Assembly (NCBI RefSeq): GCF_016026235.1
Contig: NZ_CP065613.1
Source of the DNA: Escherichia coli
GTDB taxonomy: Bacteria; Pseudomonadota; Gammaproteobacteria; Enterobacterales; Enterobacteriaceae
Strand: one strand, 5' to 3'
DNA: 64,000 nt
Part shown: positions 12,848-54,932 of the stretch, piece by piece
How positions within the stretch are numbered: position 1 is the first letter of the stretch
Layout: each line of letters starts with the position of its first letter
Program-made: the position numbers and the translations under genes
Notes under the pieces: model-generated
Database searches by the model: none
Told to the model about the DNA's origin: nothing
Seen by the model: the letters and a program-made list of their open reading frames with translations, nothing else

Positions 12848-13335
12848 ACTGCCGTGAAGTGCGGCACCCCGTAGGTTGGATAAAGCGGTCACGCCGCATC
12901 CGACATCTAACGCCCGAGCCGGTTGCCTGATGCGACGCTGACGCGTGTTATCAGGCCTACACCGCTGTGAAGTGCTCCACCCCGTAGGTCGGATAAGGCG
13001 GTTACGCCGCATCCGACATCCAACGTCCGAGCCGGTTGCCTGATGCGACGCTGACGCGTCTTATCAGGCCTACACCGCTGTGAAGTGCTCCACCCCGTAG
13101 GTCGAATAAGTCGGTTACGCCGCATCCGACATCTAACACCCGAGCCGGTTGCCTGATGCGACGCTGACGCGTGTTATCAGGCCTACACCGCTGTGAAGTG
13201 CTCCACCCCGTAGGTCGGATAAGGCGGTTACGCCGCATCCGACATCCAACGTCCGAGCCGGTTGCCTGATGCGACGCTGGCGCGTCTTATCAGCATACGC
13301 CACATCCGGCATACCATGCCGGATGTGGCACATCA
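12848..13335. repeat. Tandem REP/BIME array, four units of about 110 bp plus a terminal 14-bp-stem palindrome at about 13299-13329
   Basis: Repeated gccgcatccgacatc...gcctgatgcgacgctg...cttatcaggcctaca units; ORF track shows the same MRRNRLIRPTGWSTSQRCRPD peptide in several overlapping ORFs. Confidence 0.9.
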
Positions 13336-50530: not shown

Positions 50531-51181
50531 TTACATGGCGTAGTAATACGCTTTCACCTGCTCCCAGTCCGCTTTGGGGATTGGCTCCAGATATTTTTCC
50601 AGCTGGCGGAAGTCATGATTAATCGCTTTATCGCGACGCAAGCGGCGACGACTTTTCTCCAGGTCAAGAAAACCAGCTTCTGCATTACCTTCTGTTTTCA
50701 CATAGATATGGCGAACATAACAACAGCCATGCTGACGATTAATGCTATGCATTTTCTTAAACGCCAGCGCCACTGCTTTCAACATGGCTTGCCGTACTTC
50801 GTCAGAATAAGGCGATACTGCATGCTGGGCATACCAGTCAGCAATGCTGATGAACCCCGCCATATCTTCAGTCACCAGCAACGCTCGCCATTCACCCTCA
50901 ATTTTCACCGCTTCACCAAAAACGATCTTCGGCACGATGACACCGGCCCGTTCCAGTTCTTTAATTACCGCAACCTCACGGACAATCGTTGGTCGGCCGA
51001 ACGGATAACGTACGGAATGAAACAGATGATGCGTCATGCGCTTTACATATAGCTTTTTGCCGTTGCGCTCGACGCATTGCACCCCGCTCATACCATTACG
51101 GCGATAGTTAGGCTCTTCAACCCAGTCGCCCTCTGTTGCCCACCAGTGATTAAATTCGTCGTGCTTTGCTGAAACTGCCAT
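50531..51181 (-). CDS. inaA: Acid-inducible Kdo/WaaP-family kinase InaA (216 aa)
   Basis: 216-aa ORF; K-12 synteny after yfaE. Confidence 0.88.
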   Translation of the reverse strand: MAVSAKHDEFNHWWATEGDWVEEPNYRRNGMSGVQCVERNGKKLYVKRMTHHLFHSVRYPFGRPTIVREVAVIKELERAGVIVPKIVFGEAVKIEGEWRALLVTEDMAGFISIADWYAQHAVSPYSDEVRQAMLKAVALAFKKMHSINRQHGCCYVRHIYVKTEGNAEAGFLDLEKSRRRLRRDKAINHDFRQLEKYLEPIPKADWEQVKAYYYAM

Positions 51182-51261: not shown

Positions 51262-52314
51262 TTAATGAATTTCTTTTGCCACTACTAGCGCGACACCGCT
51301 TTTACCCTTCATTTGCAGCGCATAGACTCCACCAGCCACTACCACTAATAGTGCGCCCAGCAGATAAATCATTCGGTAGCCAGTATGTGCAACCATCATC
51401 CCCATCACACAGGCTCCCAGCGCCAGGCCTGCATCCATCGCATTGAAGAAGAGGGAGTTTGCGACACCGATTTTATGCGGTTCCACTGAACTGATAATCT
51501 GCGTCTGAAAAACTGGCGTCACGGAACCATACCCGATACCAATCAACGCGCCAGAAACAACCATCATTATGCTTCCCTGGGTGTAGCCGAGAACCACCAG
51601 TCCTACCGTAAAGAACACAAGGCAAGGGTAAACCACATATTTCGGTCCTTTTTTGTCGCAGACATTGCCGGTAAAGGTACGGCAGATCATCAGGAAGATG
51701 GCGTAGCAAAGCAGGAAATTACTGGCCGCCGACATCAGGTTAAGTTCGCGAGCATAAAGCGCCAGAAAAGCAGAAACCCCGGCATACGAAAAGGTCATAA
51801 AAAAGGTGACCATCGCAAATGGCAACGCCGCGCGATCGAACATGGCGGCAAAGCCCATTTTCGGCGTTGAACCATCAGCATGGCTGATAACCGGCGGCAC
51901 TGTCATAATCAGCGACAGAATAATCCCCACCGCTGCCACGCCGGTGCATAGCCAGAAAGCCAGATTAAAGGCTTCCCAGCGCGCCATATTCAGACCAATC
52001 CACGGCCCGACCACCATTGCCAGCCCCATTGCCAAAGAGAAAAAACTGATGCCCTCCCCACGTCGGGAGGCCGGGATCAGCCGCGCGGAAATCGTTCCTT
52101 TTACCGTAGTGATAACCCCGAAGGTAATACCATGAAGCACCCTAATAAAAAGCAGTGATTCTATTGAGTGGCAAAAAGGATACAGCGCAGAGACCACCAA
52201 AAAGGCCAGAGAAGAGAGCACCAGAATAGTTTTATTCGAATATTTACCCACCCATTGCCCGGCAAAGGGTCGAATAACAATCGCCGCAATTAAAAATAAT
52301 GTCACCAGCAGACC
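51262..52314 (-). pseudogene. MFS transporter gene, C-terminal part (about codons 51-396), interrupted by IS4
   Basis: Multi-TM ORF opening with an ORF-caller GTG inside the target duplication; continues the reading frame of the fragment at 53740-53889 once the IS4 and one duplication copy are removed. Confidence 0.8.
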
Positions 52315-53739
52315 TAATGCCAGTCAGTTAAGCAACTGACTGGCTCTTTTTCGGGGCTGTGGGGTATTTCCAGGGCCTCTCCTTTACCACTCTCGGGAAG
52401 GCCCTTCCCCTTCTCGTCGGTAATTTCACAAGTTGTCCCATACTTGCAAGATCGCGCATCAGCTCCGGTATACGTCCCGGTGAAGCGCCCTGCAATGTCA
52501 TCAGCATTCTCATCACCATTCCGCATGATTCTGAGAAACTCAGTTGATTCGGCCAGTAACCTTTCAGATGTTCCGCCATTTTAATCATCTGATATCTCAC
52601 CAGATTATAAGCCAGTAAGACACCCCACAGCTCTTGCTCCACAAGCTCCGGCTTTTTACTTCTCAGCGTCAGCCTGCTCAGTTGCATCGTCTGTTTTATC
52701 TCCCTGTATCCCAGTTCGATTTCCCAGCGATGACTGTACAGATCCGCCATTTCTCCTCCGGGGAAGCGCATGGCGTCCGTCATCGACGTCAGCAGATGGC
52801 AGACTTTTCCTTTGCGCGTCACGGTCAGCAGGCGGGCTGTCACTTCATTTCCCAGTCCCGGCCACTTTTTTCGTGCCTGCGGGCTGGTTTTCAGCTTCAC
52901 CAGATGATCGCCTTTACCCAGTTTTCTGAGCTCTTCATATTGCGCTCCCTTTCTGAGAGGTATCATCCAGTGGCGGTGTTCTCCCGCCAGGCTCCAGGCA
53001 TTTAACAGTCCCAGTGAGTAATAACCTTTATCCATTAACGTCAGAGTGTTATCGCCGGTTTGTTCTATAAGTTGCTCAGCAAGCTCATTTTCGCTGTTCT
53101 TCATCGTGCCGAAGGCTGCAGCCGTCAGCAGATGGCTGGTCAGTTCCATCTGGCAGACCATTTTGACCTGCGGGTAGAGCGCCGGGTTCCCGGCATGTGT
53201 CTGGCGGGGAAGGCTGCATCGTTCTCTGGTGTATCCGGTGTGCGCCAGAACACACCATCGATGGCCAGCAGGGTCAGGCCGCACCAGTGCGGATGCGGCG
53301 TGGCGTTATGCCAGAGCTGCGCTGTTTTCGTGAACACGCGGCGGACAGCCTCACTTCCCAGGCGCTGGCGGGCCTGAATAACGGCACTGGGGGCAACGAA
53401 GGGGCGATTGCCCGGCAGCATGATGTCCAGGCGATTCACAATCTGGTGAAGAGGTTCTTTACGCTCAAGCGCCATGCCAACAATACACCAGACCATCATT
53501 TCGAGGGGAAGACGGCGCTTGCGTAGCGTTACAGTACCTGATTCGGCAAGGCAACGAGAGATGAGTTCGGGGTCGAGGTAATCCCCCAGAGAAGTCAGTG
53601 GGTTACGCAGAGAATCGTAACGGGATACCAGATCAAGAGCCTGTCCAATGTGCATAAAAAAATCCGGAAACAAGTGAGCGTTTCCGGATTCTTACACAGC
53701 CACTGGATCGGTCAACTGATCCTTAACTGATCGGCATTA
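52315..53739 (-). mobile_element. IS4 (1425 bp) with imperfect terminal inverted repeats taatgccagtcagttaag / cttaactgatcggcatta and 12-bp target duplication caccagcagacc
   Basis: Transposase translation recognisable as IS4 InsG; the duplication sits at 52303-52314 and 53740-53751; ends cross-checked against ORF boundaries. Confidence 0.9.
52328..53673 (-). pseudogene. insG: IS4 transposase split into two overlapping frames (177 aa + 318 aa), apparent frameshift near 53196-53200
   Basis: ORF track shows 53140-53673 and 52328-53284 on the same strand in different frames; together they span a single roughly 442-aa transposase. Confidence 0.7.
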
Positions 53740-53889
53740 CACCAGCAGACCAGCTTTATCAGGGGATGCATGGAGACGATCGGAGATATAAATAGGTAAT
53801 AAGGTCAGCAACACATAAAAGACGAAAAAGATAATAAAGCTAATAATGGTGATTGCCCAAAAATCTTTCGTCCATAATTTTTCTTTCAT
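53740..53889 (-). pseudogene. MFS transporter gene, N-terminal part (about 50 codons), separated from the rest by IS4
   Basis: MKEKLWTKDFWAITIISFIIFFVFYVLLTLLPIYISDRL... first TM helix of an MFS protein; frame terminates at the TAA created by the IS4 end. Confidence 0.75.
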
Positions 53890-54053: not shown

Positions 54054-54932
54054 ATGACACTAACCCAAATCCACACCCTGCTCGCCGTACTGGATTATGG
54101 CGGCTTTACCGAAGCCAGTAAGCGCCTGTTTATGACGCAATCCGCCGTAAGCCAGGCCATTGCCACCCTGGAGCAAGAGCTTGGCGTAGAGATCCTGATC
54201 CGCGAGCGGCGAAAAGCACTGCAGCTGACTGACGCCGGCTCACGCATCGCAAGCCATCTGCGGGCGATTACCCGTGAAGTGAACGCTGTGAAAGAAATTG
54301 CCGAGCAGGAAAAACATAACCCGACCAGAACGCTGCGCATCGGCTGCTTTCCCAGCGCCTGCGCGTGTATTTTACCGGGTATTATTCGCTATTTTGAAAC
54401 TTATCATCCGCAGATAAAAATCATTCCTTACGAAGAGAACAGCAGTGAAATTATTGATTCGGTGCAAAACGAAACTATCGATGCCGGTTTTGTCCATTTT
54501 CCGGTAACCGGAATGTATTCCGTCCCGGTATATCAGGATAAATTTACCGTGGTGCTGCCAGATGCTCATCCCCTGGCAAAAAATAACGCTATATCGGTGG
54601 AAGAACTGGTGGGAGAACCGCTCATTATCAGTAAGGGGCGTTATGAATTAAGCATTATGGCGTTATTTAAGGAAAAGAATATTACGCCGGTCATTAAATA
54701 TGAATTTAACCATCCAGATACGGCAATAAGTTTTATTCGCCAGGGATTAGGAATTGCTCTGTTACCGGAGCTGACGCTGAAAGCCGTCGCCGGTGAGTTA
54801 TGCTCTGTCCCGCTGGAGCCGACGTTTTATCGGCAAATTTCATTGCTGGTCAAAGAGGCGCCGGTAGAAGGCAGCCCATTGTTTTTATTGCAAATGTGTA
54901 TGGAAACCCTGGTGGTCAAAGGCATATTGTGA
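54054..54932 (+). CDS. LysR-family transcriptional regulator (292 aa)
   Basis: N-terminal HTH (LTQIHTLLAVLDYGGFTEASKRLFMTQSAVSQAIATLEQELG) and C-terminal substrate-binding domain; divergent from the MFS gene. Confidence 0.85.
   Translation: MTLTQIHTLLAVLDYGGFTEASKRLFMTQSAVSQAIATLEQELGVEILIRERRKALQLTDAGSRIASHLRAITREVNAVKEIAEQEKHNPTRTLRIGCFPSACACILPGIIRYFETYHPQIKIIPYEENSSEIIDSVQNETIDAGFVHFPVTGMYSVPVYQDKFTVVLPDAHPLAKNNAISVEELVGEPLIISKGRYELSIMALFKEKNITPVIKYEFNHPDTAISFIRQGLGIALLPELTLKAVAGELCSVPLEPTFYRQISLLVKEAPVEGSPLFLLQMCMETLVVKGIL

Follow-up and report, generated by a model that had tools for sequence, protein, structure and literature searches.

The IS4 family of insertion sequences, and the IS4 subgroup within it, have been delimited by a set of structural criteria (De Palmenaer et al., 2008; PMC2266710). 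Members are 1400-1650 bp long, have ends of the form -AATR--------WTW----, are flanked by direct repeats of 10-13 bp, and encode the transposase in a single ORF with a DDE spacing of D(60-110)D(100-150)E and the motif Y(2)R(3)E(6)K. IS4 is also one of the five IS elements which have expanded in the Shigella/EIEC lineages, where genes have been lost by insertion (Hawkey et al., 2020; PMC7373316). The type element, the IS4 of Escherichia coli K-12 (insG, b4278), is flanked by a 12-bp target duplication, there ATCTTGGTTCTG. K-12 also offers a close parallel for the gene studied here: at its yfaH locus a deletion of about 1.9 kb took most of an MFS transporter gene together with the first two-thirds of the adjacent LysR-family gene, leaving 106 bp of the 3' end of the former and a C-terminal remnant of the latter, yfaH. 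In the 64-kb stretch of E. coli DNA analysed in this work (the window), by contrast, both genes are retained in full, the MFS gene being only interrupted, by a copy of IS4. This is a textbook IS4 insertion with target duplication, the biology of which is already known and which is nothing new in kind; the only new detail is a one-base deletion in the transposase gene of this copy.

The interrupting element is a 1425-bp copy of IS4 flanked on both sides by the 12-mer CACCAGCAGACC (Table 1). Aligned to the K-12 MG1655 feature that carries the annotation 'insertion sequence:IS4', it is 99.5% identical, with six mismatches and one gap over 1426 aligned positions, and it shares with the K-12 element the 18-bp ends and the gene layout. 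We consequently regard it as IS4 proper, i.e., the type element and more than an IS4-like one; IS186 or another member of the IS4 family was considered and ruled out by the identity to the annotated IS4. The sequence-only reading, made before any database search, had recognized an IS4-type transposase, which was right as to the element, IS4 itself, and missed the frameshift that the gene carries in this copy. The best matches to the element were copies in EIEC-type strains and in their roughly 290-kb plasmids, and with respect to the copy in the chromosome of the EIEC-type strain CFSAN029787 one missing base is the sole difference. The allele of the window is thus nearest to EIEC copies, which is consistent with the Shigella/EIEC subpopulation of IS4 (PMC7373316). 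Matches to IS4 were found in 2,686 of the 5,426 complete RefSeq E. coli genomes, annotated as 'IS4-like element IS4 family transposase'.

The terminal inverted repeats, TAATGCCAGTCAGTTAAG and (reverse-complemented) TAATGCCGATCAGTTAAG, are 18 bp long and match at 16 of 18 positions; the earlier description of a 1425-bp element with imperfect inverted repeats thus proved accurate. Just inside one end of the element, at 52319-52344, lies a hairpin with a perfect stem of 11 bp and a loop of 4 nt, and TCTTTTT comes directly after it. On the plus strand this looks like an intrinsic terminator, possibly for transcription entering against the direction of the transposase; the hairpin is without a T-run on the transposase strand. 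An exact search of the 64-kb window returned exactly two copies of CACCAGCAGACC, one at each end of the element, and no match on the opposite strand; the probability of a 12-mer matching by chance at both ends is about 4^-12. The duplication lay outside the 20 largest direct-repeat families of our repeat search and was verified by the exact search. Gene coordinates could not be found for the exact intact allele, the protein WP_152027504.1; as the empty-site reference we used FDAARGOS_943, the closest complete genome, where the site reads ...AATGTCACCAGCAGACCAGCTTTATC... and the 12-mer occurs once, and the repeat in the window is therefore a target duplication, perfect in both copies as the first reading had claimed.

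Table 1. Features of the interrupted MFS transporter locus. Positions refer to the 64-kb window; TM, transmembrane segment.
Feature	Position	Strand	Basis or remarks
inaA, next gene downstream of the MFS gene, intact	50531..51181	-	NF007383, 511.7 bits against a cut-off of 235
MFS gene, 3' part, codons 47-396 and stop	51262..52314	-	Begins with four duplicated codons (GLLV)
Target-site duplication, left copy, CACCAGCAGACC	52303..52314		Exact search; single-copy in the empty site of FDAARGOS_943
IS4 insertion sequence	52315..53739	-	Transposase gene co-directional with the interrupted MFS gene, both on the minus strand
Terminal inverted repeat, transposase 3' end, TAATGCCAGTCAGTTAAG	52315..52332		Repeat pairing, 16/18 complementary
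C-terminal transposase fragment	52328..53284	-	318 aa; native frame from about 53204 downward; D209, E314, Y307-R310-E314-K321
N-terminal transposase fragment	53140..53655	-	171 aa from ATG; D133, then 21 out-of-frame residues
Frameshift site: 4 G (coding-strand C4), 5 in intact IS4	53206..53209		Alignments to CFSAN029787 and GCA_900449985.1
Terminal inverted repeat, transposase 5' end, CTTAACTGATCGGCATTA	53722..53739		Repeat pairing, 18 nt
Target-site duplication, right copy, CACCAGCAGACC	53740..53751		Exact search; single-copy in FDAARGOS_943
MFS gene, 5' part, codons 1-50 (TM1 and start of TM2)	53740..53889	-	Sequence, ORF list and hydropathy
LysR-family regulator, divergent, intact	54054..54932	+	Syntenic with WP_000176730.1 of FDAARGOS_943

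When set against the family criteria, the element falls within the ranges for size (1425 bp) and direct repeats (12 bp), and both of its ends fit the consensus, with TAATG at positions 1-5 and TTA at positions 14-16. Catalytic residues were assigned through conserved local motifs and the match to NF033592, the NCBIfam model of IS4-family transposases; in the repaired transposase they are D133, D209, and E314, separated by spacers of 75 and 104 residues, inside the family ranges, and the Y(2)R(3)E(6)K motif is present at residues 307-321 (Y307-R310-E314-K321). A single transposase ORF, the remaining criterion, is absent from the window copy and present in the copy of the same insertion in GCA_900449985.1 (442 aa). 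On sequence grounds we take the single-ORF organization to be ancestral, and the window copy is a defective or mis-sequenced member of the family and no different kind of element.

The target also resembles those of other IS4 copies. At eight independent IS4 sites in other genomes the duplications were of 11, 12, or 13 bp, and in this small sample the duplication was usually preceded by an A-run and followed by a T-run, each a few bases away. In transposase orientation the window site reads ...ataaagct[GGTCTGCTGGTG]acattattttt..., with AAA 3 bp before the duplication and TTT 6 bp after it. A target consensus of AAA-N20-TTT has reportedly been published for IS4; the literature searched yielded no confirmation of this consensus. 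Three IS4 copies in the assemblies CP026824.1 and CP026845.1 were without target duplication, as would be expected if IS4 copies had recombined with one another or adjacent deletions had occurred; one of the three is flanked by two similar hairpin-like sequences and no repeat. The IS4 site of K-12 MG1655 (4502090-4503515, duplication ATCTTGGTTCTG) is occupied as well in the unrelated assembly BPVM01000001.1, and this suggests either an old common insertion or a site preference.

The sequence-only reading had placed codons 1-50 of the MFS gene at 53889-53740 and the rest at 52314-51262, coordinates which agree with the ORF list and the sequence. In the 5' stub, a short ORF that ends at 53737, translation is stopped by a TAA which the first bases of IS4 supply, while downstream of the element there is a 347-aa membrane-protein ORF (51262-52305, minus strand) the GTG start of which, at 52305, lies inside the duplication. 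Excision in silico of 52315-53751 (1437 bp; equivalently 52303-53739) gave a 1191-bp, uninterrupted minus-strand ORF of 396 codons starting from the ATG at 53889, the continuous frame of about 396 codons that had been foreseen. The homology check that had been proposed for this ORF also came out in favor of a split gene: the restored protein is colinear with intact MFS homologues, matches WP_152027504.1 exactly, and differs from WP_001718552.1 of FDAARGOS_943 by the single residue S88T.

For a product identical to the 347-aa ORF, the Pfam families MFS_1 and Sugar_tr are recorded. Among the NCBIfam MFS models, 41 matched the restored protein at E<=0.001, with NF003477 (residues 10-379) the best of them. 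All of these matches fall far short of the equivalog or subfamily cut-offs, so that the transporter cannot be assigned to a particular substrate family. In a Kyte-Doolittle scan TM1 (residues 13-31) and TM2 (46-64) were clear, and there were many overlapping peaks across residues 13-379.

The whole window is colinear with FDAARGOS_943, in the order ccm-nap-eco-mqo-...-ompC-rcsDBC-gyrA-ubiG-yfaL-nrdAB-yfaE-inaA-MFS-LysR-glpQT-glpABC-rhm. The divergent LysR-family gene, presumed to be the regulator of the MFS gene, has a C-terminus that matches NF007272, the model of the K-12 YfaH remnant. The locus is ordinary E. coli chromosome, with the fixed order inaA-MFS-LysR-glpQ, and is neither an island nor mobile DNA. 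Of the 5,426 complete E. coli genomes, 1,227 have the full MFS gene, in every case as a chromosomal and not a plasmid-borne copy, and in the loci inspected it sits between inaA and glpQ; about 3,100 of the genomes have only a 107-bp remnant of its 3' end, the form also seen in K-12, and the rest lack the gene. The surmise that the transporter belonged to an accessory module thus stands in the pangenome sense only and does not extend to a mobile island, given the fixed chromosomal site; the phrase should rather be read as a variably retained chromosomal gene pair. Orthologues of the MFS protein at least 90% identical are found in Salmonella and Citrobacter, which together with the frequent loss indicates that the MFS-LysR pair is old and dispensable in E. 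coli. With the MFS gene only interrupted, its loss in the window strain is in principle reversible by precise excision. In strain DSM 103246 an ISVsa5 transposase is among the features under the match to the 4.5-kb locus.

IS4 was found at this site in none of the 5,426 complete RefSeq E. coli genomes, the criterion being that no genome covered the 4.5-kb query in one piece. The 347-aa junction ORF was nevertheless recovered, with identical junctions, on at least 21 public contigs (NCBI and Logan assemblies), and the four of these which were read have 99.98-100% identity to the window. The insertion is thus fixed in one E. coli clone or lineage and not private to one isolate, and it postdates the split of that clone from FDAARGOS_943-like strains, at about 0.05% divergence. 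To call the insertion recent, as the first reading did, is reasonable, given that neither FDAARGOS_943, the nearest complete genome, nor any of the 5,426 complete genomes has it, and given the lack of substitutions in the element relative to copies elsewhere. Between the window and FDAARGOS_943 there are 34 differences over about 61 kb, all of them substitutions and 32 of them transitions. Seven of the 34 fall on the inner C/G of CCAGG (Dcm) sites (e.g., 1379, 9551, 27188, 35474, 35910, 44031, and 63320), the expected signature of 5-methylcytosine deamination.

Taken together, the proposed sequence of events is as follows. A copy of IS4 entered a chromosomal MFS gene, located between inaA and the divergent LysR regulator, at codon 50; its DDE transposase would have cut the target with a stagger of 12 bp, and repair of these cuts would have produced the 12-bp direct repeat. 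The MFS gene was thereby split into a 50-codon stub, ended by the TAA at the tip of IS4, and a promoterless 3' piece without TM1. The insertion has become fixed in one E. coli clone, and a later 1-bp deletion in a C5 run would have split the transposase of the window copy between the first and the second catalytic Asp. We put the probability of this account of the insertion at roughly 95%.

That the junctions are real is hardly in question. IS copies are a common cause of misassembly, and the junctions might stem from an element misplaced by the assembler; against this, a perfect 12-bp duplication flanks the element and is made of a sequence which is single-copy in the empty site, the junction between IS4 and the 3' part of the MFS gene was recovered independently in NCBI and in Logan short-read contigs, and both junctions were found in one 4.56-Mb contig, all of which makes an artefact extremely improbable. 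It is only slightly less far-fetched that the transporter still works through expression of the 347-aa ORF by read-through from IS4. The ORF does exist and is annotated as an MFS transporter by gene callers, and the transposase is co-directional with the MFS gene, its 3' hairpin having no T-run on that strand. The product, however, would be missing TM1 and the initial residues of TM2 from an MFS fold of the 12-helix type, and the ORF has no promoter of its own. MFS proteins without their N-terminal helices are not known to insert into the membrane or to function. From the 50-codon stub and the promoterless 3' piece without TM1, we infer that the transporter is almost certainly non-functional.

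The status of the transposase is less settled than that of the insertion. In the window its gene is split into two overlapping minus-strand ORFs, 53140-53673 (177 aa) and 52328-53284 (318 aa), and the element is 1425 bp instead of the canonical 1426 bp because of a 1-bp deletion in the G-run at 53206-53209; compared with K-12, it is this missing base that causes the frameshift, the other differences being six substitutions. The base is the sole difference in both the CFSAN029787 and the GCA_900449985.1 alignments. It falls after Pro150 of the transposase, so that D133 is cut off from D209 and E314, the other two catalytic residues; NF033592 is accordingly matched at its positions 3-131 on the N-terminal ORF and 133-332 (190 bits) on the C-terminal one. 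Programmed frameshifting as the origin of the two ORFs was rejected, as intact IS4 has a single ORF and the base is missing relative to otherwise identical copies. C4/C5 runs are also not known to act as slippery sites. If the deletion is real, the window copy would no longer make its own transposase. We read the frameshift tentatively as a biological event, although the odds that the insertion is the same and the missing base a homopolymer error of sequencing or assembly, the element being in truth an intact, autonomous 1426-bp IS4, come not far short of even. In UGFA01000002.1 (GCA_900449985.1), which carries the same insertion and is otherwise identical over 9,044 bp, the run is C5 and the transposase is 442 aa long. 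The sequence collection lists this very frameshift product of 171 aa in 200 blocks, and in the chromosome-scale assemblies which were read the C4 allele occurs at many unrelated IS4 sites; three of these C4 copies have further indels (lengths of 1424, 1424, and 1422 bp), a pattern which has the look of homopolymer error, and it is in repeated IS copies that polishing most often fails. In the other direction, the comparison with FDAARGOS_943 shows zero indels over about 61 kb, all 34 differences being substitutions, so the window is apparently not prone to indels, and one allele recurring at different loci could reflect a genuine variant that has spread in trans or through gene conversion. An improbable extension of the latter idea is that the change from C5 to C4 is both real and recurrent, the C-run being prone to slippage which switches copies off and possibly on again, with the frameshifted copies spreading in trans. 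A slippage-prone tract combined with transposase supplied in trans would explain the presence of the exact allele at many unrelated sites in many genomes.

A second insertion sequence is present in the window, a 768-bp IS1 at 45135-45902. It is flanked by a target duplication of 9 bp (TAAGACGGC) and lies 32 bp upstream of the yfaL start codon. The yfaL autotransporter ORF itself is intact (1250 aa, 41350-45102, minus strand), and the IS1 probably separates it from its own promoter. FDAARGOS_943 is without the IS1 at this position and has an IS5-family insertion inside yfaL, and the gene appears to have been struck independently in the two strains. Elsewhere in the window, at 12854-13293, a 113-bp unit is repeated in tandem 3.9 times (93% matching); the array is composed of REP/BIME-like palindromes and is placed by synteny between mqo and eco. 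With two IS insertions in 64 kb, the window recalls the IS-made pseudogenes of Shigella/EIEC (PMC7373316); the relatives of the window strain are labeled E. coli.

For annotation, the MFS gene should be recorded as an IS-disrupted pseudogene and the IS4 transposase as frameshifted, the latter pending confirmation at the level of the reads. The insertion also lends itself well to use as a PCR marker of one E. coli clone. For the biology of E. coli, it adds one more route of inactivation to those by which the frequently lost MFS-LysR pair is disposed of.
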